A stretch of DNA of 14,666 nucleotides. Origin: Candidatus Zixiibacteriota bacterium (GTDB lineage: Bacteria; Zixibacteria; MSB-5A5; GN15; FEB-12). The position numbers and the translations under genes are program-made. Below, piece by piece: positions 1-14,666 of this stretch (position 1 is the stretch's first letter; every line of letters begins with the position of its first letter). Where the stretch lies: contig JBGSIV010000246.1 of the NCBI GenBank assembly GCA_041742355.1, forward strand, positions 1-14,666, given 5' to 3'. The notes below the pieces were generated by a model. That model had not been told where the DNA came from, ran no database searches, and worked only from the letters and a program-made list of their open reading frames with translations.

Positions 1-2
1 GC

Positions 3-1007
3 GGCACGAGCGACGGTACGCCGACGCCCGGCTCTCGTCGGGGCGGGGGGGCGACGCCGGTCGAGGCGCTGGTCATCCAGACCCAGCCTATCGAGAATAC
101 CATATTCACGACCGGTACCCTTCTGGCCAACGAGGAAGTCGAGTTGAAGCCGGAGATTTCCGGCCGGGTTACGAAGGTACACTTCGACGAAGGTGCGGCG
201 GTCGGGCGCGGAGACCTCCTGGTGAAGATCAACGATCAGGAATTGCAGGCCCAGCTCAAACGCAAGCAGTTCGAGGAGAAGCTGGCTGTCGATGAAGAAC
301 GCCGCGCCCGGGCGTTGTTCGACGCCAAGGGGATCACTCAGGAGGAGTATGATCGCATCGCCAGCAAGCTCGACATTGTCCGGGCCGAGGAAGAAGTGAT
401 TCAATCCCAGCTGGCCAAGACGGAGATCCGGGCGCCGTTCGACGGCAAGATCGGCCTGCGCTATATCAGTGAAGGTTCTGTCCTCTCCCCCGGCACGCTG
501 ATCGCGACGATGCAGGACACCGATCCGATCAAGGTCGAGTTTTCCATTCCCGAGAAGTACGCCGGCCTGTTGACTCCCGGCACCCCGATTACACTTCAGG
601 TAACCGAGAACCGGGAAGTGTATCAGGGTTCCGTGTACGCGGTCGAAGCCAAGGTCGATCCGGCCACCCGTACGCTCAAAGCCCGGGCGACCGCTCCCAA
701 TCCGAAGGGAGTGCTCATCCCCGGGGCATTCGCCAAGGTCGAGATTACCGTCGAGCGTATTGCCGACGCGGTCGTGATCCCCGCCGAGGCCCTCATCCCC
801 GAATTGGAGGGGGAGAAGGTATTCATCGCCGAGAATGGCACAGCCAGATCAGTCCGTGTCGTCACCGGCATCCGGAGCGAGAGGACAGTGCAGATCACAT
901 CCGGCCTCAAGCCGAACGACACCCTCATTCTCACCGGCCTGATGCAGCTCAATGACGGCAAGGCGGTGGAGCTGAAAACCAGGCCCGCGCCGGAAGTCAA
1001 ACCGTAA
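3..1007 (+). CDS. RND efflux periplasmic adaptor (membrane fusion protein, AcrA/HlyD family), 5' truncated by the window edge
   Basis: The frame is open from position 3 (…TPVEALVIQTQPIENTIFTTGTLLANEEVELKPEISGRV…). It has lipoyl-like halves (ISGRVTKVHFDEGAAVGRGDLL; IRAPFDGKIG), a coiled-coil hairpin and a beta-barrel (VDPATRTLKARA, LIPGAFAKV). It abuts the RND permease. Confidence 0.95.
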   Translation, partial: GTSDGTPTPGSRRGGGATPVEALVIQTQPIENTIFTTGTLLANEEVELKPEISGRVTKVHFDEGAAVGRGDLLVKINDQELQAQLKRKQFEEKLAVDEERRARALFDAKGITQEEYDRIASKLDIVRAEEEVIQSQLAKTEIRAPFDGKIGLRYISEGSVLSPGTLIATMQDTDPIKVEFSIPEKYAGLLTPGTPITLQVTENREVYQGSVYAVEAKVDPATRTLKARATAPNPKGVLIPGAFAKVEITVERIADAVVIPAEALIPELEGEKVFIAENGTARSVRVVTGIRSERTVQITSGLKPNDTLILTGLMQLNDGKAVELKTRPAPEVKP

Positions 1008-1008
1008 C

Positions 1009-4000
1009 GTGAACATATCAGCCCTCTGTATAGAACGGCCGGTGCTCGCCACCGTGTTGTCGATTCTGATCGTGCTTTTCGGTGCGATCGGTTTCCTATT
1101 CCTCGGCGTGCGTGAGTACCCCAGTGTCGATCCGCCGATCGTGACGGTCTCGACCAGCTACACGGGGGCCAATGCCGACGTCATCGAGTCGCAGATCACC
1201 GAACCGCTGGAGGAGTCGGTCAACGGCATCGCCGGCATCCGTTCGCTCACCTCGACCAGCCGCGACGGCCGCAGCACGATTACGGTCGAGTTTGAGCTGG
1301 GTGTCGATATGGAAGCGGCCGCCAATGATGTTCGCGACCGGGTGTCCCGGTCTCTGCGCAGCCTCCCGCCCGATGTCGACCCGCCCACGGTTTCGAAAGC
1401 CGACGCCGACGCAAGCAACATCCTCTCCATTACTGTGCAGAGTGATCGCAGAAGCCTGCTGGATCTTTCCGCGGTAGCGAACGATATCTTCAAGGAGCGC
1501 CTGCAGACCGTTCCGGGCGTGGCTGAAATCCGGATTTGGGGCGAGAAGCGCTACGCCATGCGCCTCAATATCGATCCGGTCCGGCTGGCCGCGCATGGCC
1601 TTACGCCGCTCGATGTCCGCAACGCTCTCAATCGGGAGAATGTCGAGCTTCCCTCGGGGCTCATCGAGGGCTACAATGTCGAGCTCTCTATCCGGACGTT
1701 CGGCCGTATGTCAACGGCCGCCGAGTTCAATGACCTGATTATCCGCGAGACCGACGGATCGGTGGTCAAACTCCGAGACATCGGGGAAGCGGTGCTCGCC
1801 CCGGAGAATGAGCGCACGATTCTGCGCGGCAACGGCGGCATTCCGATGGTCGGCGTGGCCATCACGCCGCAGCCCGGGTCGAACCACATCGCTATCGCCG
1901 ACGAGGTCTATCGCCGTGTCGAGCAGATCAAGCAGGAACTTCCGGAGGATATCCGGCTGAATGTCGCGATGGACACGACGGTCGGGATCCGCAAAGCGAT
2001 CACGGAGGTCGAGGAGACGATCCTCATCGCGTTTATTCTCGTGCTCCTCGTCATTTTCGTCTTCCTGCGCCACTGGCGCACCACAATTATCCCCATGCTG
2101 GCGATCCCGATCTCGCTGGTCGGCACCTTTTTTATCATGTACGCGGCCGGCTTCTCGATCAACATCCTGACCCTGCTGGGGATCGTGCTTTCCACCGGCA
2201 TTGTGGTCGACGACGCCATCGTAGTGCTGGAGAATATCTACAAGAAGATCGAGGATGGGATGCCGCCGCACGAAGCCGGGCATCGAGGGTCGAAGGAGAT
2301 TTACTTCGCCATCATCTCCACGACCATTACGCTCGCGTCGGTCTTTCTGCCGATCATTTTTCTGCAGGGGTTGACCGGGCGCCTTTTCCGCGAATTCGGC
2401 ATTGTGGTCGCCGGCTCCGTGCTCATCTCCGCCTTCGTCTCCCTGACTCTCACCCCGATGATGGCCGCCCGCTTCCTTCACAAGAGCAGCCACGAGAACC
2501 GCTTCTTCCTCTGGAGCGAACGGATGTTCAACCGGCTGTCCGAGAACTACCGGAGGCAGCTAACCCGGTACATTCGCCGACGCTGGCTGGCCCTGGTCAT
2601 CATGGCCGGTTCGCTGGCGCTGATCGTAGGGGTCGGCGCCCTGATCCCCGCGGAACTCGCCCCCATGGAGGACAGGAGCCGGCTTGTCGTCAATGCCACC
2701 GCGCCGGAGGGTACCTCATATGAAGCGATGCGCAATTACATCGGGCGTATAATCAATATTGTGGATACGCTGCCGGAACGGGACGTCATCCTGTCGGTGA
2801 CCGCTCCCGGTTTCGGCGGCTCGGGTTCGGTCAACAGCGGCTTTGTCCGGATGAATCTGGTGCCGCCCGACCAGCGCACCCGCACCCAGCAGGAAATCGC
2901 CGATCAACTCATGGCCCGCCTTCGTTCCGAGACGTTTGCCCGGGCGTTTGTCACGCAGGAGCAGACGATTGGCGGCGGCCGGGGCTCCGGGCTTCCGGTG
3001 CAGTATGTCATCCAGGCTCCGACCATGGAGAAGCTCCGGGAAGTGATCCCCCCGTTCATGGATCGGGCGCAGGCCGATTCGACTTTCCAGATTGTGGATC
3101 TCAACCTCAAGTTCAACAAACCCGAGCTGACGGTTGAGATCGATCGCGCGCGCGCCCGCGCCCTGGGCATCACTGTCCGTGATATCGCCGAGACCCTGCA
3201 GCTCTATTTCAGCGGCCAGCGGTACGGTTTCTTCATTTTCAACGGCAAGCAGTATCCCGTTATCGCGCAGGCCAACCGTTCCAACCGGGATGAACCGATC
3301 GATCTGAGCTCCCTGTATGTTCGCAATACGCGTGATGAGCTGATTCAGCTCGACAATGTCGTGACTCTCTCCTACCGCAGCAGCCCGCCGCAGCTCTACC
3401 GGTACAACCGTTATGTGGCCGCGACTGTCAGCGCCTCGCCGGCCCCCGGCTATACGCTCGGGCAGGCGATCGAGGCCATGGATGCCATTGCCGAGGATGT
3501 CCTCGACGAGTCTTTCTCGACTACTCTCGCCGGCACCGCCAAGGAGTACGCCGAGAGCTCCAACACGCTGCTGTTCGCCTTCCTTTTGGCGCTGATCCTG
3601 GTGTACCTGATCCTTTCCGCGCAGTTTGAGAGTTTCCGCGACCCGCTGATTATCATGCTCACGGTGCCGCTGGCTCTTGCCGGCGCGGTGTTGTCGCTGT
3701 GGTTGTTCGGGCAGACGCTGAATATTTTCAGCCAGATCGGGATTATCGCTCTCGTCGGTATTGTAACGAAGAACGGTATCCTGATTGTCGAATTTGCCAA
3801 CCAGCGGCGCGAACAGGGGTTGGCCCTGACCGAGGCTGTGATTGATGCCGCGGCCCAGCGGTTCCGTCCCATTCTTATGACCAGTCTTGCGACGGTGTTT
3901 GGGGTGCTGCCGATCGCGCTGGCTCTCGGCGCCGCCGCCCGGAGCCGTGTCTCGATGGGGATCGTGATCATCGGCGGGCTGCTCTTTTCGCTCGGGCTGA

Positions 4001-4101
4001 CCCTTTTCGTGATTCCGGCGCTGTACACTTACCTGTCATCGAAGAAAGCCCGGACGGCACTGCCGAAAGAGATCGAGGAACCCCGGCCCGAGCCGGTGTA
4101 A
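1009..4101 (+). CDS. RND efflux transporter permease (AcrB/AcrD/AcrF family), 1030 aa
   Basis: N-terminus is CIERPVLATVLS…VREYPSVDPP. Proton-relay motifs GIVVDDAIVV, TKNGILIVEFA and RFRPILMTS are present. The hydrophobic pattern fits 12 TM helices with two large periplasmic loops. Confidence 0.97.
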   Translation: MNISALCIERPVLATVLSILIVLFGAIGFLFLGVREYPSVDPPIVTVSTSYTGANADVIESQITEPLEESVNGIAGIRSLTSTSRDGRSTITVEFELGVDMEAAANDVRDRVSRSLRSLPPDVDPPTVSKADADASNILSITVQSDRRSLLDLSAVANDIFKERLQTVPGVAEIRIWGEKRYAMRLNIDPVRLAAHGLTPLDVRNALNRENVELPSGLIEGYNVELSIRTFGRMSTAAEFNDLIIRETDGSVVKLRDIGEAVLAPENERTILRGNGGIPMVGVAITPQPGSNHIAIADEVYRRVEQIKQELPEDIRLNVAMDTTVGIRKAITEVEETILIAFILVLLVIFVFLRHWRTTIIPMLAIPISLVGTFFIMYAAGFSINILTLLGIVLSTGIVVDDAIVVLENIYKKIEDGMPPHEAGHRGSKEIYFAIISTTITLASVFLPIIFLQGLTGRLFREFGIVVAGSVLISAFVSLTLTPMMAARFLHKSSHENRFFLWSERMFNRLSENYRRQLTRYIRRRWLALVIMAGSLALIVGVGALIPAELAPMEDRSRLVVNATAPEGTSYEAMRNYIGRIINIVDTLPERDVILSVTAPGFGGSGSVNSGFVRMNLVPPDQRTRTQQEIADQLMARLRSETFARAFVTQEQTIGGGRGSGLPVQYVIQAPTMEKLREVIPPFMDRAQADSTFQIVDLNLKFNKPELTVEIDRARARALGITVRDIAETLQLYFSGQRYGFFIFNGKQYPVIAQANRSNRDEPIDLSSLYVRNTRDELIQLDNVVTLSYRSSPPQLYRYNRYVAATVSASPAPGYTLGQAIEAMDAIAEDVLDESFSTTLAGTAKEYAESSNTLLFAFLLALILVYLILSAQFESFRDPLIIMLTVPLALAGAVLSLWLFGQTLNIFSQIGIIALVGIVTKNGILIVEFANQRREQGLALTEAVIDAAAQRFRPILMTSLATVFGVLPIALALGAAARSRVSMGIVIIGGLLFSLGLTLFVIPALYTYLSSKKARTALPKEIEEPRPEPV

Positions 4102-4207
4102 GCGAGCGGCTGTACTCTGTCGCGAGGCGCCGCCTGACTCCATATTTTTCACAGGTTTTTCCAACACAGACGTCATGTAAGCTCCCCGGCGAGCGTCCTA
4201 ACCGCGA

Positions 4208-4750
4208 ATGACAAACGACCGAGGGTTGTTCTGGAGACTGGCCGAACCCGAGATGACGCGGGCTAACCTCTTCTGCCGCAAACTGACGGGGAGCCGCGAC
4301 GAGGGGGACGACCTCTTCCAGGACGGCCTGGTCACCGCCCTGACCAAATTTGCCGACCTGCGCGACCACGCGGCGTTCCGGGGATGGCTGTACCGGATCC
4401 TGATCAACACGTACCGCAGCCGGATGCGGCTCAAATGGTGGCGCCGACTGGCGCCGTTGACCGAGCCTATGGAGTCCACCCTGCCCGGTGATGATCCCGG
4501 TGAACGGTACACTGCGCGGCGCCGGCTGGAGCGCGGATTTCGGGTGCTGACACATGAGGATCGCACGCTGATCGTGCTTCACGAACTTGAGGGATGGCCG
4601 CTGGCCGAATTGGCGGCTGTCTACGGCAAGTCCGAAGGAGCGCTGGCTGCCCGCCTCGCCCGCGCCCGGAAGAAACTGAGGGAACGGCTGGATCCGGGGA
4701 TCACCACGATTCGCAAACCGGATCCGTCGCCCGTGGAGGAGGACCGATGA
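4208..4750 (+). CDS. ECF-type RNA polymerase sigma-70 factor
   Basis: 180 aa. Region 2: GDDLFQDGLVTAL…FRGWLYRILIN. Region 4 HTH: LIVLHELEGWPLAELAAVYGKSEGALAARLARARKKL. Confidence 0.92.
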   Translation: MTNDRGLFWRLAEPEMTRANLFCRKLTGSRDEGDDLFQDGLVTALTKFADLRDHAAFRGWLYRILINTYRSRMRLKWWRRLAPLTEPMESTLPGDDPGERYTARRRLERGFRVLTHEDRTLIVLHELEGWPLAELAAVYGKSEGALAARLARARKKLRERLDPGITTIRKPDPSPVEEDR

Positions 4751-5343
4751 ACTGCCGCGAAGTACAGGATTATCTGAACGGCCTGCGAGGGGTCGACTGC
4801 ATCGATGATGATCCAGCGGTCGGCGCTCACCTCGCTGTGTGCCCGACCTGCGCGGCCGCGGCCGAGAAGACACGGCGGCTGCAACAGGTCTTGCAGGCAG
4901 CGTCAATCGACGATCCCGATCGGTTGAAATCACCGGCCGCCCACCGGGTCGAGGTGGCCGCTCGCCTGACCCAAAGTCAGGCCGGGCAGCATCGGCATCG
5001 CCGTCAGTTCGCTGTCGGTTCGGTCATGGTTACCGCCCTTGTTCTGATCGGTCTCTTCGCGCCGCTTCGGCATGAACCGGTCGATGGTTACAGGATGTCG
5101 GTTGACGGTGTCAGTGTTGAACTGGCCGGGGATCATGAGCGCCTGTGCGACATGCTCTTCGCCCTCGGCGCGGTCAACGCCGGGGTCGATGTCGGCGCGT
5201 GCGATACGACCTGCACCGTGGTGATCTTCGACCTGCGCACGCGGGACGAGGCCCGGCTGGTGGAGGCCGCTATCCGCAACCTGAGCCCGGGGGACGTTAC
5301 GGTCGATGTCATTCCCGTGAGGTACCGTTCGGCTGAAAGCTGA
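4747..5343 (+). CDS. Zinc-binding anti-sigma factor (zf-HC2/ZAS) with one TM helix and an extracytoplasmic C-terminal domain
   Basis: ATG overlaps the sigma factor stop codon (ATGA, 4747-4750). MNCREVQDYL…HLAVCPTC matches the ZAS HxxxCxxC motif. TM segment FAVGSVMVTALVLIGLFAPL. Confidence 0.88.
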   Translation: MNCREVQDYLNGLRGVDCIDDDPAVGAHLAVCPTCAAAAEKTRRLQQVLQAASIDDPDRLKSPAAHRVEVAARLTQSQAGQHRHRRQFAVGSVMVTALVLIGLFAPLRHEPVDGYRMSVDGVSVELAGDHERLCDMLFALGAVNAGVDVGACDTTCTVVIFDLRTRDEARLVEAAIRNLSPGDVTVDVIPVRYRSAES

Positions 5344-5404
5344 TCGGGCGAGAACACCGGTGCGCTGCGGCGTCCGGTCCACTCCACTGAAGGAGAAGAT
5401 GAAC

Positions 5405-6136
5405 ATGCTGACACGACTGGTACTCAGCGCGAGCCTGGTCCTGAGTCTGACCCTGATCGCTCCGGTTGCCTATTCCGCGCCGGCCGCCGTGGTCGACGAA
5501 ACCGCCTTTGATTTCGGCTATGTCCCCCAGCAGGCGAAGATCTCGCACGTTTTCAAGATCAGGTCGGTTGGGGACGATACTTTGAAGATCATGCAGGTGG
5601 TTCCCGGCTGCGGTTGCACCAAGGCGCCGCTCGAGAAATCTGATTTGGCCCCCGGGGAGAGCACGAACCTCGAGGTTGTTTTCAGCACCGGGGCCTACCA
5701 GGGACGGGTTTCCAAGCATCCGAAGTTCGTGACCAACGAGACATCCCCGGAGCACAAGCTGGAGTTTTTGTCCACTGTCCTCGTTCGGCCGGATTCCAGC
5801 TATCCGCTGGTGATTCAGCCGCGCATTCTCGACTTTTCCGGCGGTGGGGCAGATGCCCCGGGAACGCTGACGGTGCGCCTCACTAATGTCTCGGAGTCGG
5901 CTGTCAGTCCCAGTCTGATCGAGACCCCGGCGGGGTTGTTTGAGATTGTACTTCCCGGGTCGATTCCCGCCGGTGGCAGCGCTGAGGCGACCATTCGGCT
6001 GAGCGATGATGCCCGCGCGTCGTTCGAGAAGTCGTTCACGTTCCAGTTAAACGATGCGCAGGCCTCGAGATATACGGTTCCGGTCAAAAGGACTGCCGCC
6101 GCAAGTCCCGCTCCGGCGGCGCCGGTTGGCCAGTAG
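5405..6136 (+). CDS. Secreted DUF1573 (Ig-like) domain protein
   Basis: AGGAG at 5391-5395 precedes ATG 5405 (alternative ATG 5399). Signal peptide MLTRLVLSASLVLSLTLIAPVAYSA. DUF1573 signature FDFGYV…HVFKIRSVGDDTLKI…PGCGCT…LAPGES, followed by a second Ig-like segment. Confidence 0.85.
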   Translation: MLTRLVLSASLVLSLTLIAPVAYSAPAAVVDETAFDFGYVPQQAKISHVFKIRSVGDDTLKIMQVVPGCGCTKAPLEKSDLAPGESTNLEVVFSTGAYQGRVSKHPKFVTNETSPEHKLEFLSTVLVRPDSSYPLVIQPRILDFSGGGADAPGTLTVRLTNVSESAVSPSLIETPAGLFEIVLPGSIPAGGSAEATIRLSDDARASFEKSFTFQLNDAQASRYTVPVKRTAAASPAPAAPVGQ

Positions 6137-6448: not shown

Positions 6449-6817
6449 GGGGGTGACTTGGTTTCGACGGGTTTAGCGAGGAGTTGCTGGCGTGCCGGGG
6501 ATGTCTGGAACCCCGTTACCAATTCAGGCAAACCAATAATTGGCGAATCCAATTATGCCATGGCTGCCTAAGCTACAAAACGCTTAGGTTAACAGCCCGT
6601 CGCACCCGGTTGAGCCTCTTGGGCCGGGAATCGCGGCGTCGATAACGAGGGGATCGGCCTGTTGATGTCTCTAAGGCAGGCTTAAAATTCGGAGGCTGGC
6701 ATTGAACGTGGCCTGTCGGTCGGCAGCGTTCAGGGCGAGAACTTATAGACTGACTACGCACGTAGTTCGGCGGCTTGGCGTTGAATTCGGACGGGGGTTC
6801 GATTCCCCCCACCTCCA
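6449..6817 (+). ncRNA. ssrA: tmRNA (transfer-messenger RNA)
   Basis: 5' end GGGGGTGACTTGGTTTCGACGGG. The acceptor stem GGGGGTG/CACCTCC has the G3-U alanine identity pair and discriminator A6817. T-arm GGGGG-TTCGATT-CCCCC. The tag reading frame 6542-6571 encodes GESNYAMAA*. Confidence 0.97.
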
Positions 6818-6820
6818 ATT
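6792..6820 (+). repeat. att core, left copy: 29-bp direct repeat of the tmRNA 3' end
   Basis: CGGGGGTTCGATTCCCCCCACCTCCAATT, identical to 13913-13941. Confidence 0.95.
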
Positions 6821-6902
6821 TATTGTCTCCCTTTAAGTTACCGTGGCACAAGGGGTAGGACGAATTGCCTATTCCCCCGTCCCCTCATGTCCCACAACGA
6901 AT

Positions 6903-6915
6903 TATCAACAACTTA
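6903..6915 (+). promoter_or_regulatory. IHF-consensus site in the island left arm
   Basis: TATCAACAACTTA is an exact match to WATCAANNNNTTR, and lies between the att core and the GTCAC arm repeats. Confidence 0.6.
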
Positions 6916-6926
6916 CGAGGACGATG

Positions 6927-6946
6927 GTCACGATTTGGTCACAGTG
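6927..6946 (+). repeat. Putative integrase arm-type site, copy A
   Basis: GTCACGATTTGGTCACAGTG, a tandem GTCAC with 11-bp period. It is 18/20 identical to 13863-13882 and to 14060-14079. Confidence 0.7.
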
Positions 6947-7242
6947 GGTTTGTTATTATTGATAGATAATGCCACGTTCGGCGTGTCTGGTCTAGTGGCC
7001 AACAGATAGGATTCTAAATGAGGAGTTGACCGAGCTTGAGTCTCGACTCCTCATCACTATACTCTATACTCTCGACGAATTCCAGAATAGGTCGCACACG
7101 ACGCCAGGAAGTATTGCGGAGACTTTGAACTTCACCCAAATTGGACGTCACACTGTGCCCGCTCTTTGATCCGGGGCAAAGAACCTGGCAGTGCTCTTGT
7201 CGATGTCTCGACATGACACTGATATTGACTATTATTCAACTA

Positions 7243-7260
7243 TTGTGAATACTATCACAA
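7243..7260. promoter_or_regulatory. Rex-operator / CRP-FNR-family palindrome upstream of the peroxidase-porin operon
   Basis: TTGTGAATACTATCACAA has one mismatch to the Rex consensus TTGTGAAnnnnTTCACAA and contains a perfect TGTGA-N6-TCACA. It lies just downstream of TTGACT (7225-7230). Confidence 0.7.
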
Positions 7261-7327
7261 AGCGATCGTAGCCGCATGTTCTTTTCAGGAGCGGGTAATT
7301 TGGCCCGTTAGGAAAGGAAGGGATGAC

Positions 7328-8398
7328 ATGAGAAAACTTGCCGCCGCATTTTTTATCGCCGGGATGCTATTTTGCTCTTTGCTCTTAGCTGCCGACAATT
7401 CGGCACCGGCGCTTACGACAGTGAGCGCTCATTCTCTGGGACCGGAGCGACTCGGAAATCTGCCACCGGTTCTGGTACCGGGTAATAATCCCCAGACTGA
7501 TGCGAAAATCTTATTGGGTAAACAGCTCTATTTTGATACGCGCCTGTCCAAAGATAATACCATCAGTTGCGCGACCTGCCATGATCCTGCGCTGGGTTGG
7601 TCCGACGCCGGCCCGACAAGCTCAGGAATAAATAGTCAGCGTGGGGGACGACGAGCGCCACCCGTGTCAAATGCGGCACACAGCCCGCTCCAGTTTTGGG
7701 ATGGGCGGGCCCCAAGTCTCGAAGAACAAGCCAAGGGGCCGATCGCCAACCCCATTGAAATGGGGAATACGCACGACGCGATGCTTCGTACTGTTGACCA
7801 CCTCCCGGGCTATGTTGATGCGTTTAGGAAGGTCTTTGGTGATGTCCCAATTACGATTGACTTGGTTGCTCAAGCTATAGCGGCTTATGAGCGGACCATA
7901 GTGACTACTGACTCTCCATTCGATCGGTTTGTGCGTGGCGATCAAACCGCTCTGACCAAGCAGGAGAGAAGCGGGCTGGAGATCTTTAACGGCAAAGGGC
8001 GTTGCACCCTCTGCCACTGGGGCGGGTATTTTAGCGATGGTCGCTTTCACAATCTGGGTGTTGCGCCCGCACCCGGAGAGAAGCCGGATGAAGGGCGTCA
8101 AGCTGTAACCAAGGATCCTCTTGATGCAGGCAAGTTCAAGACGCCAACGGTGCGGGATGCGTCCAAACGTCCTCCCTATATGCACAACGGTACTGAAGCT
8201 TCTCTGCTCGATGTTGTACGTCTCTACAATCGCGGTGGCGGCACAGACGATGCGAACCTCGATCCGCTAATGTTCCCGCTGGGACTCTCTCACCGGGAGA
8301 TAGAGGCTTTGGTGGCTTTCATGAGTAGAGCCATGGTCAGCACAAATCCATCGGTAGCCAGCGAAAAGCCGGTTGCACCCGAAGAACTACCGAAGTGA
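7328..8398 (+). CDS. Periplasmic di-heme cytochrome c peroxidase, bCcP/MauG superfamily (MauG-like)
   Basis: Signal peptide. Heme motifs CATCH (aa 81-85) and CTLCH (aa 226-230). Family motifs LGKQLYFDTRLS, QFWDGRAPSLEEQAKGP and GKFKTPTVR…PYMHNG. Confidence 0.93.
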   Translation: MRKLAAAFFIAGMLFCSLLLAADNSAPALTTVSAHSLGPERLGNLPPVLVPGNNPQTDAKILLGKQLYFDTRLSKDNTISCATCHDPALGWSDAGPTSSGINSQRGGRRAPPVSNAAHSPLQFWDGRAPSLEEQAKGPIANPIEMGNTHDAMLRTVDHLPGYVDAFRKVFGDVPITIDLVAQAIAAYERTIVTTDSPFDRFVRGDQTALTKQERSGLEIFNGKGRCTLCHWGGYFSDGRFHNLGVAPAPGEKPDEGRQAVTKDPLDAGKFKTPTVRDASKRPPYMHNGTEASLLDVVRLYNRGGGTDDANLDPLMFPLGLSHREIEALVAFMSRAMVSTNPSVASEKPVAPEELPK

Positions 8399-8409
8399 AG
8401 GAGACCATC

Positions 8410-9666
8410 ATGAGCAGAACTATTAGAGCATTCGTGATCGTGACGGGCATTCTCCTGATGATACCTCAGGTAAGTCAGGGGATTCCCGCTTTCGCGCGTA
8501 AGTACGGCTTCAACTGTAATATGTGCCACACTGCCTATACTAAGCTGAACGATTTCGGCCAGCGATTCCGGAATAGCAATTATCAGATTCCTGGACAGGA
8601 AGGACTGGAGAAGAACGTTTTTGAAACTGCTCCACCGTTGGCTCTGAGGACAAGCTTCGGCCTGTTGTCGAGCCATACAAAAGCGGCGAACACGTCCGGA
8701 TTTGTATTGAACGGACTTGACCTGTTGTCAGCCGGAGTCCTGCACAAGAATATCTCCTATCTCCTGATCTACACCCCCCGTCTTGACGAGCCGGCGGCTG
8801 ATCACACTGGCTCGGCTGCGGGGTCCAACCCCAGCCAACTGGGGGCGCTCGAATCGGCGAGCTTGGTGTTCAGCAATCTGGTGAAGGGTGCGGTCAACCT
8901 GCGGGTCGGACGGTTTGAACCATCATACAAGCCCTTCAGCAGCAAGAGGTCATATTATCTGATTCAGCCCTACGACATTTACTCGTTCACTACACCGTCT
9001 AACGATTTTGTGTTCGATGATAACCAGATGGGACTGGAGGTGGCTGGGCATTTCAAGAGTGGGTTTCGCTATGCCTGCGGTATAGTCAACGGAAGCGGTG
9101 CAAATCCTGACAATAGTAGGGCCAAGGATCTTTACGTTCGTGCTGCTCAGGTCTTTGGCAGAGGCGAAGGGCAGAATGCCGGACAACGCGTCGGTCTTTT
9201 CGGCTATTTCGGCTGGATGCCGACGGTGTCTGATGATTCCACATTTGATTTCGCCGGTCAAGGAAACGGCAGTTCCCATGAGCCCTTTCGTCGAATTGGT
9301 TGCGATGTCAGTTTGAACTGGCAGACTTTCAATCTTCACGGAATGTTTATGCAGGGGTCGGACGACAAGGGAATTGACAGCGGTGCAACCGAAAACTATA
9401 AGTTCACCGGCGGTTTCACCCAGCTTGATTATGCCGGGCTCATGAATAACCGCATGGTTGGTTCAGTAGTCTATAACTGGATAACTCCTCCGAAGTCCGA
9501 TGAGGAGCGACGGAGTAGCTCCTTCTCTGTCCTATTGCGATATTATCTCGGAGATTGGACAGCCGTAAACGTAGCCTTGCACGCCGAGTATACGCATCGT
9601 GAGGAAGGAAAGGTCGAAAAGGTCAAGACCGATCAACTGGGTTTGCTAGTAGATTTCGCTTTCTAG
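8410..9666 (+). CDS. Cyc2-like fused monoheme cytochrome c / outer-membrane beta-barrel porin
   Basis: AAGGAG at 8398-8403 precedes ATG 8410. After the signal peptide comes IPAFARKYGFNCNMCHTAYTKLNDFGQRF, i.e. PxFAR[K/Q][Y/T] followed by CxxCH. The remainder has amphipathic beta-strand character and ends in Phe (LLVDFAF). Confidence 0.78.
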   Translation: MSRTIRAFVIVTGILLMIPQVSQGIPAFARKYGFNCNMCHTAYTKLNDFGQRFRNSNYQIPGQEGLEKNVFETAPPLALRTSFGLLSSHTKAANTSGFVLNGLDLLSAGVLHKNISYLLIYTPRLDEPAADHTGSAAGSNPSQLGALESASLVFSNLVKGAVNLRVGRFEPSYKPFSSKRSYYLIQPYDIYSFTTPSNDFVFDDNQMGLEVAGHFKSGFRYACGIVNGSGANPDNSRAKDLYVRAAQVFGRGEGQNAGQRVGLFGYFGWMPTVSDDSTFDFAGQGNGSSHEPFRRIGCDVSLNWQTFNLHGMFMQGSDDKGIDSGATENYKFTGGFTQLDYAGLMNNRMVGSVVYNWITPPKSDEERRSSSFSVLLRYYLGDWTAVNVALHAEYTHREEGKVEKVKTDQLGLLVDFAF

Positions 9667-9695
9667 CACTCAGTATCGATTTCTGTTGATCCGGC

Positions 9696-9731
9696 GAGCG
9701 GGAGGCCGACTGGTCTCCCGCTCATTATGTT
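9696..9731 (+). terminator. Stem-loop / probable terminator after the porin gene
   Basis: 12-bp stem GAGCGGGAGGCC / GGTCTCCCGCTC (one G-U pair), loop GACT, then the AT-rich tail ATTATGTT. Confidence 0.6.
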
Positions 9732-9909
9732 AATGAAAGAATGCCTCTGGAATGTGTGAACTTCAATAACCGCTCATTTGCCGGTAGCTGGTGCGAAAGC
9801 GAAGCACCTTGGATAAGACACTGATTTCCCCCTTTTCTCTTTGTTGTATATTCGTACTTTCTTCTTGTAACACATGGTCCCATGTCAACATTTGCCACAA
9901 GGAGTGAAA

Positions 9910-12480
9910 TTGGATACGTCCACGGCTACAAACATCGATCTGAGTACAATAACGGGATTGTCCGAAAGCGAAGCACTCCGGCGGCTACAAGCCGAGGGTT
10001 ACAACGAACTTCCCTCCAGTAAGAAGAGAACTGTATTGGCCATCGCATGGGACGTGGTCCGCGAGCCCATGTTCCTCCTTCTTGTGGCATGCGGCACGCT
10101 GTATCTGTTTCTGGGTGACATCCAGGAAGCCATCATGCTGCTCGGATTTGTGCTCGTGGTAATGGGCATAACGCTTTATCAGGAACGAAAAACCGAGCGT
10201 GCCCTGGAAGCTTTGCGGGACCTCACGAGCCCTCGTGCGTCGGTTGTCAGAGGGGGAGAACAAAAGCGTATCGCCGGTCGAGAAGTAGTCACCGGTGATG
10301 TCGTGATCCTGCATGAGGGGGACCGCGTGCCGGCAGATGCCGCACTGATCTCTTGCATCAATCTCTCGGCAGACGAATCCCTATTGACCGGCGAATCGGT
10401 CGCGGTGCGAAAGACAATCTGGAATGGTAAGGACCAGTCCTTGCGACCGGGAGGTGACGACCTCCCTTTTGTCTATTCCGGTACGATGGTAGTGGGAGGT
10501 CAGGGGGCGGCCAGGGTCCACGCTACTGGTGTCAAAACCGAGATTGGCAAGATCGGCAAAGCGCTGCAGGCGGTCGAGACCCAAAGCACACCTTTACAGA
10601 AAGAGACAGGTCGTCTCGTCCGGAATCTGGCAATTGTAGGTCTCTCCCTGTGTCTTCTCGTTATAGTCATATACGGGCTGACGCGCCACGACTGGCTGCA
10701 TGGCCTGCTCGCGGGCATCACACTGGCGATGGCCACCCTGCCTGAGGAATTCCCAGTGGTTCTGACGATCTTCCTCGCGCTTGGGGCCTGGCGCCTTTCA
10801 CAGAAGCAGGTGCTTACGCGTCACGTTCCCGCCGTTGAAACGCTTGGCTCGGCTACCGTTCTCTGTGTTGACAAGACCGGTACGCTGACACAGAACCGAA
10901 TGACGGTTAAGAGCATAGTTGTTAAAGAAGAGACATTTGATGCCGAGAACCTCACTGGTCACGGATTGCCGGAAACATTCCATGAGATTGTCGAGTACAG
11001 CATTCTCGCCAGCAAGCGGGATCCATTTGACCCGATGGAGAAGGCCTTTAAGAAGCTGGGTGAAGATCAACTTGCCAATACCGAACACCTGCACGGCGAC
11101 TGGCACCTGTTGCAGGAGTATCCGCTATCCAAGGATCTGCTGGCACTTTCTCATGTCTGGCAATCGCCGGCTGGGACTGATTTCATCATCGCAGCCAAGG
11201 GAGCTCCTGAGGCAATATTCGATCTCTGTCATTTGGACGGGACACAAGTTGACAAGCTGAACAAAACTGTTGCCGGTCTTGCCGCCCGAGGTCTTCGCGT
11301 GCTGGGAGTTGCCAGAGCAAGTTTCAGCAGCGATTCGCTGCCCGAGATCCAGCATGACTTCACCTTCAGACTCCTGGGACTCGTCGGACTGGCTGATCCA
11401 ATCCGGTCGACCGTTCCAAGCGCGATCAAAGAGTGTTACACCGCCGGCATCAGAGTGGTGATGATCACTGGGGATTACTCAGGGACAGCACAGAGCATCG
11501 CCCGCCAGATAGGCCTCAGATCCGTGGACAATGTTCTCACGGGAACTGATCTGGATGGTATGTCTGACGAACAGCTTCAGGTGCGTATACGCGATGTCGA
11601 CATATTTGCCCGAGTTGTTCCCGAGCAGAAGCTGCGACTCGTCAATGCGCTGAAGGTCAACAAAGAAGTCGTGGCGATGACCGGCGATGGTGTCAATGAT
11701 GCGCCTGCCCTCAAATCCGCGCATATCGGCATTGCCATGGGAGGGCGCGGAACCGACGTCGCCAGAGAATCATCGTCCCTGGTTCTCCTGGATGATGACT
11801 TTTCATCCATCGTTGGCGCCGTGCGGCTCGGAAGACGGATCTTCGACAATATCAAAAAAGCCATGGCCTACATCGTTTCGGTTCACGTGCCAATAGCGGG
11901 TATGTCGCTGATTCCGGTTGTCATGCAGTGGCCGTTGGTGCTGTTACCCATGCACATTGTCTTTCTGGAACTCATCATCGACCCCGCCTGCTCTGTTGTA
12001 TTTGAGGCGGAAGTTGAAGAGTCAAATATTATGCAACGCCCCCCTCGCGATCCCAAGGAGCCACTCTTCGGCAAGAGCATCGTCTTTATCAGTCTCCTGC
12101 AGGGCATCTCGGTACTGGTTGTTGTTCTTCTAGTTTACCTCTTGGCGCGCGGCCTCGGACGCGTCGAAGATGAGGTCCGAGCACTAACCGTAGTTACGCT
12201 TATCCTCTCCAATCTGGCATTGATTCTCACTAACCGTTCTTGGACTCGTACCATCTGGGGAATGCTAAAGTCGCCAAATGCGGCTCTTCTATGGGTGCTG
12301 GGAGGGACGATTACTTTTGTCCTGGTGATCTTGTACGTGCCGTTTCTGAGGTTCTTGTTTCGATTCGCGTTCCTGTACCCAGCAGACCTGCTAATGTGTG
12401 TAACGGCCGCTGCCGTGAGTATTGCGTGGTTTGAGGCGCTGAAGGTTTTCAGGAACCGTCACCTTGGGACCGCTGAATGA
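9910..12480 (+). CDS. Cation-translocating P-type ATPase (P2-like)
   Basis: Motifs DESLLTGES, PEEFP (TM4), DKTGTLT, KGAPE, MITGD and TGDGVNDAPALK. Likely TTG start at 9910 after AAGGAG (9899-9904); the ORF is open from 9874. Confidence 0.95.
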   Translation: MDTSTATNIDLSTITGLSESEALRRLQAEGYNELPSSKKRTVLAIAWDVVREPMFLLLVACGTLYLFLGDIQEAIMLLGFVLVVMGITLYQERKTERALEALRDLTSPRASVVRGGEQKRIAGREVVTGDVVILHEGDRVPADAALISCINLSADESLLTGESVAVRKTIWNGKDQSLRPGGDDLPFVYSGTMVVGGQGAARVHATGVKTEIGKIGKALQAVETQSTPLQKETGRLVRNLAIVGLSLCLLVIVIYGLTRHDWLHGLLAGITLAMATLPEEFPVVLTIFLALGAWRLSQKQVLTRHVPAVETLGSATVLCVDKTGTLTQNRMTVKSIVVKEETFDAENLTGHGLPETFHEIVEYSILASKRDPFDPMEKAFKKLGEDQLANTEHLHGDWHLLQEYPLSKDLLALSHVWQSPAGTDFIIAAKGAPEAIFDLCHLDGTQVDKLNKTVAGLAARGLRVLGVARASFSSDSLPEIQHDFTFRLLGLVGLADPIRSTVPSAIKECYTAGIRVVMITGDYSGTAQSIARQIGLRSVDNVLTGTDLDGMSDEQLQVRIRDVDIFARVVPEQKLRLVNALKVNKEVVAMTGDGVNDAPALKSAHIGIAMGGRGTDVARESSSLVLLDDDFSSIVGAVRLGRRIFDNIKKAMAYIVSVHVPIAGMSLIPVVMQWPLVLLPMHIVFLELIIDPACSVVFEAEVEESNIMQRPPRDPKEPLFGKSIVFISLLQGISVLVVVLLVYLLARGLGRVEDEVRALTVVTLILSNLALILTNRSWTRTIWGMLKSPNAALLWVLGGTITFVLVILYVPFLRFLFRFAFLYPADLLMCVTAAAVSIAWFEALKVFRNRHLGTAE

Positions 12481-12535
12481 CCTTCTCTTTATCATGGCTG
12501 GTTCGATATTGATTGAATGACTGGAGCTTTCGGAC

Positions 12536-13645
12536 ATGTTCATGACATTGTTCTTAGTTGTCTGGACCGCACTGCATCTTTATGTGTTCTGGCGTTTGTC
12601 CTCGATACCGGCCATAGATCGGCATATATCGCGCAAGCTGTTGGTTGTGATAGCTGCGATATGCTGGGCAAGCAGTCTTCTGCGGCGAGTTTTGGACAGT
12701 CGTGATCTGGAATTGCTGGCACAGCCACTGGAAATGTTCGTAATGAACTGGCTGGGTATTCTGTTCCTTGTTTTCTTCTGTCTTCTGATCGTAGATGTCT
12801 TCACTGTATTCGGCTTCTTCCTACGGGGCTACGTCCCCGGACTGCGTAGTGTCGGGTTACTGGTGGGAGTTCTGCTAGCCTCGGTGGCACTCGTACAGGG
12901 CCTGCGTCCACCAGTAGTCGTTGACTATGAAGTCCGGCTCGCCGGATTACCAGTCGAAAACGATAACCTTGAGATCGCAGTGCTATCTGATATGCACGTT
13001 GGGGAATTGATAGACGGACACTGGCTGGCCTCGCGAGTTGAACAAGTCAACGCGATTCACCCCGATATGGTGATCTTGCTGGGTGATTTGTTTGAAGGCG
13101 ACAGCAGGTCCGAACGTCAGAACTGCATGAACGACATATTGCAGGGCATTTCTGCCCGATACGGTGTTTGGGCGGTCATTGGCAATCACGAATCGCACGG
13201 CGGCAGAGAATCCAGCGTGCGCTTTTTGGAAGACGCCGGAGTACATGTACTTCATAACGAATGGAGTCAGGTTCAGCCCGGAATCGCAATCGGCGGCATC
13301 GATGATGGCGGCCACCAGCAGTCGTTCTCAAGCTCCTCTGACCAGGCGATGCAGATGCTGGCATGCAGACCATCTGGTGCCGCAACCGTATTTTTGTCCC
13401 ATCGACCCCAGATGACTCACGAGATAGCATCCGCCGGCGTGGGACTTATGTTGAGTGGCCATACGCACGGCGGTCAGATCTGGCCATTCAACTACGTCGT
13501 TGGCATCGTGAATCCTTTCCTCGCAGGAAGATATGAAGTAAACAACATGCCTTTGATCGTGAGTCGGGGAACCGGAACTTGGGGACCGCGAATGCGCCTT
13601 TGGTCTCCGGGTGAGATTCTCAGGATCACTCTGCGGGCTCAGTAA
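12536..13645 (+). CDS. Membrane-anchored calcineurin-like metallophosphoesterase (YkuE/YaeI-like)
   Basis: About four N-terminal TM helices, then SDMH, LLGD, GNHE, LSH and SGHTHGGQ metal-binding motifs, with a C-terminal SRGTGTWGPRMR. Confidence 0.92.
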   Translation: MFMTLFLVVWTALHLYVFWRLSSIPAIDRHISRKLLVVIAAICWASSLLRRVLDSRDLELLAQPLEMFVMNWLGILFLVFFCLLIVDVFTVFGFFLRGYVPGLRSVGLLVGVLLASVALVQGLRPPVVVDYEVRLAGLPVENDNLEIAVLSDMHVGELIDGHWLASRVEQVNAIHPDMVILLGDLFEGDSRSERQNCMNDILQGISARYGVWAVIGNHESHGGRESSVRFLEDAGVHVLHNEWSQVQPGIAIGGIDDGGHQQSFSSSSDQAMQMLACRPSGAATVFLSHRPQMTHEIASAGVGLMLSGHTHGGQIWPFNYVVGIVNPFLAGRYEVNNMPLIVSRGTGTWGPRMRLWSPGEILRITLRAQ

Positions 13646-13862
13646 CTTTGAAAAGAGTTCGGATCACAGATTCAGTCAAGTTGCCGTAGAAGACTGTTTC
13701 GTGGTAAGCGTCAATTCTCTGTGAACGCTGTGCAGAATTCATGTTCTGATCCACTGAGTGTTGGGTGATGGTAGATTCAGTAGACTGCAAATTCCTTTCT
13801 GCATGCGGGTCAGTCCGAGACTGAGGCGGTGAGATACGCCCTGATGTCACCGCCGAGAAAGC

Positions 13863-13882
13863 GTCACGATTTCGTCACACTG
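13863..13882 (+). repeat. Putative integrase arm-type site, copy B (right end of island 1)
   Basis: GTCACGATTTCGTCACACTG, 18/20 identical to 6927-6946. It ends 30 nt before the second att core. Confidence 0.7.
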
Positions 13883-13912
13883 ACCCGTAAGTCCTTGTGC
13901 CACATAGCGAGT

Positions 13913-13941
13913 CGGGGGTTCGATTCCCCCCACCTCCAATT
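13913..13941 (+). repeat. att core, second copy: displaced tmRNA 3' fragment forming the junction between tandem islands
   Basis: Exact 29-bp copy of 6792-6820, with no tmRNA 5' part upstream. Confidence 0.95.
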
Positions 13942-14059
13942 ATTATAACTCTCCACCAACCAATCAAGTACAACGACTACATAGCCCGGACGAATCCCCC
14001 GAACCCCCGTCCACCCCCCCATATCCTGCAATAAAATAGAATATCATGAAACGGAAAAC

Positions 14060-14079
14060 GTCGCGATTTGGTCAGAGTG
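14060..14079 (+). repeat. Putative integrase arm-type site, copy C (left end of island 2)
   Basis: GTCGCGATTTGGTCAGAGTG, 18/20 identical to 6927-6946. Confidence 0.68.
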
Positions 14080-14108: not shown

Positions 14109-14172
14109 TTGCATCCCGTTGTTCAACGCGGTATAATATGTCGGCAGTTACTAATATATGCCGACATATTAT
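14109..14172 (+). promoter_or_regulatory. sigma70 promoter with an overlapping 14-bp inverted-repeat operator (AbiEi autoregulation site)
   Basis: TTGCAT (14109-14114), N17, TATAAT (14132-14137). Perfect inverted repeat ATAATATGTCGGCA (14133-14146) / TGCCGACATATTAT (14159-14172). Confidence 0.82.
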
Positions 14173-14189
14173 GCATTTGAGACTTGCCT

Positions 14190-14666
14190 ATGAACAAGCA
14201 GATTATCGACAGGATCATTCAAGTTGCGGGAAGTCTTGGTGTCATCAGACCCAAGGATATGGATGAATACGGCATCCATCGCAAGTACGTGCATATACTC
14301 CATCGCCGGGGTATACTGAATCGAGTTGGGCGTGGTCTCTATGTCCTTGCTGCGTCAAAGCCGTCCGAATACAGAACTATTGCCGAGGCTTGCAAGAGAG
14401 TATCTTCAGGTGTAGTCTGTCTCCTTTCAGCTCTTAGGTTTCACGATCTGACGACTCAATCGCCATACGAGATCTGGATGGCCATTGATCACAAGGCACG
14501 TCGGCCGAAAGAGCCCGCGATCCCGATACGCATTGTCAGATTCTCTGGAAAAGCGCTGTCCTCGGGAATAGAAGAGCATGAAGTAGAAGGTGTAGCCGTT
14601 CGTGTTTACAGCCCGGCGAAAACTGTAGCCGACTGCTTCAAATTTAGAAATAAGATCGGCCTGGAT
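14190..14666 (+). CDS. Type IV toxin-antitoxin AbiEi-family antitoxin, 3' truncated by the window edge
   Basis: Absent from the ORF track because there is no stop codon in the window. Manual translation: MNKQIIDRIIQVAGSLGVIRPKDMDEYGIHRKYVHILHRRGILNRVGRGLYV…GVVCLLSALRFHDLTTQSPYEIWMAI…VRVYSPAKTVADCFKFRNKIGLD. It has the wHTH RxGRGLY, SALxFHxLT and KTVADCF motifs typical of AbiEi. Confidence 0.9.
   Translation, partial: MNKQIIDRIIQVAGSLGVIRPKDMDEYGIHRKYVHILHRRGILNRVGRGLYVLAASKPSEYRTIAEACKRVSSGVVCLLSALRFHDLTTQSPYEIWMAIDHKARRPKEPAIPIRIVRFSGKALSSGIEEHEVEGVAVRVYSPAKTVADCFKFRNKIGLD

Follow-up and report, generated by a model that had tools for sequence, protein, structure and literature searches.

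An integrase-less cargo unit at the tmRNA gene of a Candidatus Zixiibacteriota genome and its place in a putative phylum-wide cassette family

Described units without an integrase

In integron arrays, cargo units that lack a recombinase are served by one tyrosine recombinase. For CIMEs, Pavlovic (2004) and Bellanger (2011) are reportedly the sources cited. According to the accessible parts of two accounts, CIMEs keep their att sites, lack mobility genes and measure 1.2-13 kb, with microCIMEs of 130-220 bp (PMC7563491, PMC5704250); the same parts describe their mobilisation in cis (PMC5704250, PMC7563491).

The DNA analyzed here, called the window, is a stretch of 14,666 nucleotides that makes up the entire contig C246 of a Candidatus Zixiibacteriota genome, and holds a 7121-bp unit (unit A) behind the tmRNA gene. 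Unit A and its relatives resemble the streptococcal CIMEs and microCIMEs, as far as the accessible text of PMC5704250 and PMC7563491 describes them: integration and transfer genes are absent, attL and attR are kept, cargo is carried and the units stand in tandem with IMEs at the 3' end of a gene. The accessible text of the CIME survey also lists IMEs with a PF13814 relaxase and a tyrosine integrase, like the helper described below (PMC5704250, PMC7563491). By analogy, unit A appears to work like a CIME; it differs from an IME in that its own integrase is absent, while one is present in the helpers of relatives. The family is set apart from typical CIMEs because its ends appear to form phylum-wide lineages and because recent decay could not be shown. 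In the accessible accounts CIMEs are defined as decayed ICEs or IMEs, whereas the units studied here hold no remnant and their left ends form cassette-only lineages across genera; the CIME range given there is the genus, that of the present family the phylum; and the tandem CIMEs of S. salivarius always lie farthest from the target, whereas here one integrase-less unit, in genome G245, lies between the tmRNA gene and an integrase.

The ssrA islands of Dehalococcoides, in the accessible part of their description, are likewise arranged in tandem at the tmRNA 3' end, and 15 of them, which have no integration module, were suggested to represent CIMEs that move by accretion; they differ in using the serine recombinase DsiB and a 20-bp repeat, where the present family has arm sites and a candidate tyrosine integrase of the lambda type, and in that integrase-less units are the large majority only in the family studied here (PMC3146451). 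In Prochlorococcus tycheposons, again as far as the accessible text goes, cargo is also stacked at tRNA or tmRNA genes, newcomers displace older elements and partial tRNA copies serve as borders, but tycheposons carry their own integrase and often replication genes, and unit A has neither (10.1101/2020.12.28.424599). Compared with integrons, the arrays described here have no fixed intI beside them, no recombinase being found upstream from the tmRNA gene within the window, and apparently no attC hairpins; their units, unlike integron cassettes, are multi-gene, kilobases long and bordered by tmRNA fragments with arm sites.

The tmRNA locus and its two units

ARAGORN and Rfam (RF00023, 189.8 bits) placed an intact tmRNA gene on the forward strand at 6449..6817 (tag GESNYAMAA), whose 3' end forms the first copy of an exact 29-bp direct repeat. 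This agrees with the initial annotation, which had named the tmRNA 3' end as the integration target and the exact repeat as the border of an island: both copies (6792..6820 and 13913..13941, forward strand) are identical, at a spacing of 7121 bp. Contrary to the initial description, the T-arm does not lie at the centre of the repeat but makes up its first 18 bases, followed by the acceptor end and 3 extra bases. By comparison with relatives, the 7-bp crossover would lie in the T-loop, at 6798-6804. The host flank upstream (1-6136) carries an RND efflux pair, an ECF sigma factor with a probable anti-sigma gene and a DUF1573 protein, and shows partial synteny with the tmRNA in G001 and G003.

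A third core copy, of 26 bp, was found on contig C98 of the same genome (3585-3610), and therefore the second 29-bp copy is an internal junction between unit A and a second unit, unit B, and not the end of the array. Behind the tmRNA gene the locus continues with unit A, of 7121 bp, and unit B, of 4334 bp, before the chromosome resumes, both units being without integrase; the initial annotation, taking the island as a single element, had missed the tandem array and the phylum-wide family. The end of C246 and the start of C98 share 4 bases and meet within a single abiEi gene, whose reading frame continues across the overlap. The left end of unit B (13942..14075, forward) has an arm-type repeat at 14060 and is 85% like a cassette left end in G002. 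Its first gene, abiEi (14184..14666, forward; PF13338), runs on into C98, where the rest of the unit (1-3610) comprises abiEii (PF08843), an AEP-TOTE primase-helicase (PF22548), the right end and the third core. A 40-bp inverted repeat ahead of abiEi (14133-14172) is a probable operator. This combination of an AbiEi/AbiEii toxin-antitoxin pair with an AEP-TOTE primase-helicase makes up a whole cassette and occurs in at least 4 other genomes as well. Cassettes of the unit B type are 83-88% alike across three genomes in which recA is 71-76% alike; against G001 unit B is 84% alike, barely above recA at 81%. The tandem arm-like motif has four copies in the genome, one near each end of units A and B.

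From one core to the next, unit A comprises a left end, four cargo genes and a right end. Its interior of 7092 bp is 85% occupied by the four genes, all of them intact and on the forward strand, leaving gaps of 507, 207, 55 and 267 bp. The first gene (7328..8398) encodes a di-haem cytochrome c peroxidase/MauG family protein with two CxxCH motifs (PF03150, E 1.4e-55), and the second (8395..9666) a 423-aa protein with one CxxCH and no Pfam match, which is probably an outer-membrane porin-like protein; its second match set in the Atlas, with Porin_O_P in 20% of members, is a lead only. This peroxidase and porin-like pair (7328-9666) is a two-gene module that recurs across the phylum. The third gene (9874..12480) encodes a P-type cation ATPase with the DKTGT, TGES, PEEF and GDGVND motifs all intact, an 86% identical homologue of which is the last gene of another family cassette in G113; the fourth (12536..13645) encodes a membrane-anchored calcineurin-like metallophosphoesterase (PF00149). 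Unit A as a whole was not found in the other genomes examined, where its cargo is present as separate modules. A promoter and terminator scan of the window added nothing.

Neither a tyrosine recombinase nor a remnant of one was detected in the window when all six-frame stretches of at least 30 aa were searched with a home-built HMM (22 sequences). Among the four genes of unit A there was no relaxase, coupling protein or VirB4, no match to a helper backbone protein and, by Pfam, no phage family. The earlier description of an interior filled by four cargo genes, with no gap large enough for an integrase, relaxase or phage gene, was thus borne out, the largest gap being 507 bp; the PF00589 search suggested along with it, carried out genome-wide, gave only two matches, both on other contigs and presumably Xer proteins, judging from their size.

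The GC content of unit A is 52.9%, against 60.4% genome-wide, and only 0.5% of 838 7-kb windows of the genome are equally low. Its tetranucleotide distance is reached by 2 of 475 windows, that of the left flank by 217 of 475, and GC3 is 0.54-0.61 in the unit A genes versus 0.75-0.79 in two flank genes. Unit A is an imported block, compositionally unameliorated: the GC and tetranucleotide profiles proposed as a check set it apart from the genome in both respects.

In the probable source run, which is not independent and in which no contig bridges a repeat, sequencing depth is 9.89 for unit A and 9.83 for the flank; the tmRNA-to-left-end junction recurs in G002 and G108. Because of the even depth and the shared junction, the repeat is, as far as testable, not an assembly artefact. 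The initial annotation had raised that reservation together with another, that the region might be syntenic in relatives without a shift in composition; unit A is at the tmRNA gene in none of 3 same-genus genomes, and its composition is shifted.

Neither a circle joint nor an empty-site joint was seen in the contigs of 4 of 14 runs, though contigs break at repeats, and in none of 272 loci did the downstream flank adjoin the tmRNA as an exact empty site. Run X5, considered as an empty site, was rejected: it covers the left flank and part of unit B with almost no unit A, at a depth of 1-6 and with no joining contig. In run X3, from a different study, contigs match pieces of unit A at 90-99.7%, with no bridge to any host. 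Folding of the predicted circle junction gave nothing interpretable.

The cassette family and its candidate helper

The left end of unit A (6821..6943, forward) carries an IHF-consensus-like site at 6903-6915 and an arm-type tandem repeat at 6927-6942. It is 88% and 82% like cassette left ends in G108 and G002, where the cargo is different, and 62% like helper left ends. The IHF-like site is the sole perfect match within the window to the IHF consensus (0.18 expected); in a relaxed form, the motif stands at the same position in 10 of 10 helper ends versus 8 of 32 cassettes. The host genome encodes two IHF/HU proteins. The conserved right end (13855..13912, forward), with an arm-type tandem repeat at 13863-13878, is 93% like that of unit B over 58 bp and 75% like that of the G166 helper, the only helper right end compared, over 52 bp. 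Judged by these features, unit A is among the best-preserved units, with its core, both arms and IHF-like site kept.

A 35-letter right-end pattern, searched with up to 2 mismatches in 285 genomes of the host's phylum (probably Zixibacteria), was found in 100 of them, the reversed control in 0. When all species genomes were scanned for exact matches, 55 loci emerged, among which Zixibacteria was the commonest named label (24 of 55, the rest bearing mixed labels); viral contigs gave 0 matches. Within 50 stretches chosen around right-end matches, 93 units were delimited; this set is biased to short units because it was collected via the right-end motif and mostly with 10-20-kb flanks. A tyrosine recombinase was absent from 90 of the 93, and 12 queries, 9 for the helper backbone and 3 for serine recombinases, found no match in these 90. 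The integrase-less units have a median length of 4.3 kb, the shortest measuring 198 bp and the longest 31 kb, and their cargo is unrelated between units; 77 fall within 1.2-13 kb and one, of 198 bp, is empty. Integrase-less units also make up 18 of the 21 complete units adjacent to a tmRNA gene in this short-unit set, three of an original 24 having been dropped as not confirmed by ARAGORN.

Among 32 cassette left ends, 30 are nearer another cassette than any of 11 helper ends. Their similarity to one another ends right after the arm, and they are 53-78% like helper ends. At core-only junctions, a right end accompanies 52 of 63 displaced tmRNA fragments. The 36 internal junctions of this kind have a right end in 28 cases and a left arm in 10 (chance 0.3%), an asymmetry possibly inflated by a left-arm test stricter than the right-end test and by more diverse left ends. 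Core-defined junctions were used for this count, since on motif-defined units the comparison is circular; an IHF-like match in 115 of 132 right ends is circular as well, its letters having belonged to the search pattern, and was left unused.

By these shared ends, unit A belongs to a widespread family of integrase-less cassettes with diverse cargo. No description of the family was found in a literature search that covered few subscription journals, and the accessible part of 10.64898/2026.01.13.699239 contains nothing on integrase-less units.

Several further structures were seen at these junctions. Empty units of about 200 bp, microCIME-like and with left and right arm repeats fused into one, are present at L084 (unit U72) and G026:C2 ~366200. 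Several right ends (G121:C1 ~1697800-1701200; L153) are followed not by a tmRNA fragment but by another repeated sequence, which is identical in two genomes and may be a small insertion element with the core as its target. A short common insert separates the right end from the T-loop heptamer at G029:C80, G032:C3 and L081, and in G031 (L053, 5424 and 5906) the 3' part of the tmRNA is repeated, in diverged form, ~480 bp behind the gene.

In G004 an integrase, P0001, lies behind the tmRNA gene, and its left end has the same arm repeat as the cassettes. Relatives of P0001 (at least 57% identity) occur in at least 12 of 285 genomes, the best 7 candidates per genome having been scored. Ten of the 12 helper integrases stand directly after an ARAGORN tmRNA; in 8 of these 10 a distance of 142-143 bp separates the arm repeat from the core, which is also the spacing in unit B. 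The catalytic residues R-K-H-R-H-Y are invariant. The helper profile matches lambda Int from the N-terminal domain onward, and the structural model, with an N-terminal three-strand sheet and helix, aligns with lambda Int over its full length; the candidate helper is thus predicted to be a lambda-type tyrosine integrase of three domains, the N-terminal one arm-binding. In the single-contig genome G166, a 44-kb element behind the tmRNA gene begins with the integrase (PF00589), contains two PF13814 relaxases and two PF10412 coupling-protein-like ATPases, and is followed by three integrase-less units with the same right ends. Shared ends and position make the helper integrase a candidate cognate of the cassette ends; the expectation of a tyrosine integrase for the tmRNA site is so far matched by a cognate-looking enzyme in relatives. 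The helper integrase was not found in the genome studied here (93.8% complete), nor were a relaxase or VirB4, the relaxase search giving no signal in controls either. The integrases of G148 and G073 (58% identity) are paired with a variant arm, so that arm variants track the integrase subtype.

The tmRNA integrase of G025 and G026 (34% identity to P0001) was rejected as a helper because its arm repeats differ. It marks a second type of element at the same tmRNA site, with another arm repeat, a relaxase and restriction genes (G025:C3 ~22200, G026:C2 ~366400-392000, G001:C35 ~10100, L162), of which collapsed or integrase-less forms occur in G001 and G036. Related integrases were also seen at tRNA-Glu, -Ser, -Asp/Val, -SeC and -Leu (L176-L180, L188, L125, L130), several with a similar arm repeat, which suggests target switching inside one integrase group. 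At G073:C5 ~69500-114700 the first unit measures 45 kb; its integrase is inverted and ~2 kb away from the tmRNA, and the unit also contains a further tyrosine recombinase and two serine recombinases. In the genome of unit A, large serine recombinases beside tRNA-Met, tRNA-Ser and tRNA-Leu (G000:C191, C99, C138; L004-L006) likely mark other islands.

Crossover point and routes of movement

Integration sites within tRNA-type genes have reportedly been divided into classes by Williams. T-loop attB sites are already known, as stated in the accessible part of PMC1762012. A 9506-bp integrase-less unit shows 40 differences (99.6% identity) between G025 and G116, which represent two genera with recA at 78%, and its flanks switch exactly at the 7-bp T-loop heptamer at both ends; both genomes are metagenome assemblies, in which a chimeric assembly of the shared 9.5-kb unit is possible. 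Four right ends enter unrelated DNA immediately after the heptamer, four more being degenerate cores only. Both observations support the proposed T-loop crossover.

We consider it somewhat probable that unit A, as an att-only cassette of cargo genes, hitch-hikes in cis on a helper. The helper integrase would recognise the arm and IHF-like sites of the cassettes in the manner of lambda, crossing over in the T-loop. An incoming helper would integrate at the intact tmRNA gene, in front of the cassettes, and would sometimes excise through the right end of a cassette in place of its own; the composite of helper and cassette could then reach a new cell by conjugative mobilisation. Later excision of the helper alone would leave the cassette directly behind a restored tmRNA, as in this genome, dormant until the next helper. 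New cargo would probably be acquired by recombination of neighbouring units and secondary-site crossovers, the least supported step. Right ends kept at 28 of 36 junctions and left arms at only 10 are to be expected of such units, which would need no more than their right end to travel along with a helper. Arrays in which the helper stands first, as in G166, lend this route indirect support too.

The initial annotation had proposed a non-autonomous, att-bounded island at the tmRNA gene that can be excised in trans; the former part stands and the latter may hold; no cognate integrase was found in the genome, and no circle joint in the contigs, to which that search was confined. On the trans route each cassette would form its own circle, excised by a helper integrase made elsewhere in the cell, be reinserted and reshuffled as in integrons, and spread between cells unlinked to the helper, by phage, vesicles or uptake. 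The preserved core, arms and IHF-like site of unit A speak for this, as do the unit shared by G025 and G116, which has other neighbours on both sides and both borders at the loop, an extra 4.9-kb unit in G025 between two units adjacent in G116, and the 18 of 21 tmRNA-adjacent units without integrase, in a set biased to short units. The 30 of 32 left ends closest to other cassettes would, on the same argument, be under selection of their own. However, repeated cis transfer with helper loss yields the same patterns, and a recognisable left arm is missing in 26 of 36 internal junctions. The trans route is also without a known means of transfer: no common oriT-like sequence was found, and the four non-coding stretches of unit A match no other fetched locus, helpers included, although an oriT can be short. 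The lack of a circle joint in contigs counts weakly. We regard trans excision as rather unlikely. The family is accounted for no less well by co-excision together with a neighbouring helper, and cis hitch-hiking is favoured.

Unit A could also be an inert relic, an integrative mobilisable element that is now fixed, having lost its integrase gene and those for transfer by deletion. CIMEs are classically derived in this way, as far as the accessible text of PMC5704250 states it; a search of this genome revealed no helper, cassette ends share ancestry with helper ends, and the 198-bp collapsed units indicate that deletion between arm repeats does occur. Yet none of the 90 integrase-less units holds a backbone remnant, left ends fall into cassette-only lineages whose conservation stops after the arm, a near-identical unit is present in two genera (G025 and G116), and unit A is unameliorated with four intact genes. 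We consider this origin improbable; the ends of unit A, with no remnant between them, may reflect an ancient rather than a recent derivation from an ICE or IME. A host enzyme, either XerC/D or any of the genome's three large serine recombinases, is very unlikely to be the mover. Xer-sized proteins and serine recombinases are the only site-specific recombinases found here, and such a mover would explain cassette genomes without a helper, but the three serine recombinases adjoin tRNA-Met, -Ser and -Leu, and the arm motif is restricted in the genome to the four cassette ends. Xer recombinases have no arm-binding domain, whereas the arm repeats, at 50-145 bp from the core, point to an integrase that has one, and arm variants track the integrase subtype.

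Significance of the family

Unit A is a known kind of element, found here in a little-studied bacterial group; what is new is a phylum-wide standing family of cassettes with a candidate helper. Since TIGER and Islander require an integrase gene (PMC12424338), island finders of this type cannot list such units, and a large share of the flexible genome of an uncultured phylum would be invisible to them. A more far-reaching reading, doubtful but possible, is that the cassettes are self-sustaining across the phylum and not decay products, ends of about 200 bp capturing chromosomal gene blocks between their arm repeats and a visiting integrase reshuffling the units singly. If so, the tmRNA locus would be an integron-like array without a resident integrase, in which cassettes outnumber helpers about eight to one by genome. 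The family supplies a set of matched parts, namely integrase, target, ~130 natural right ends, ~40 left ends and empty units, with which the persistence of att-only islands as lineages, and their mode of movement, cis or trans, can be addressed directly. It also offers a candidate tmRNA-specific integrase with minimal ends.
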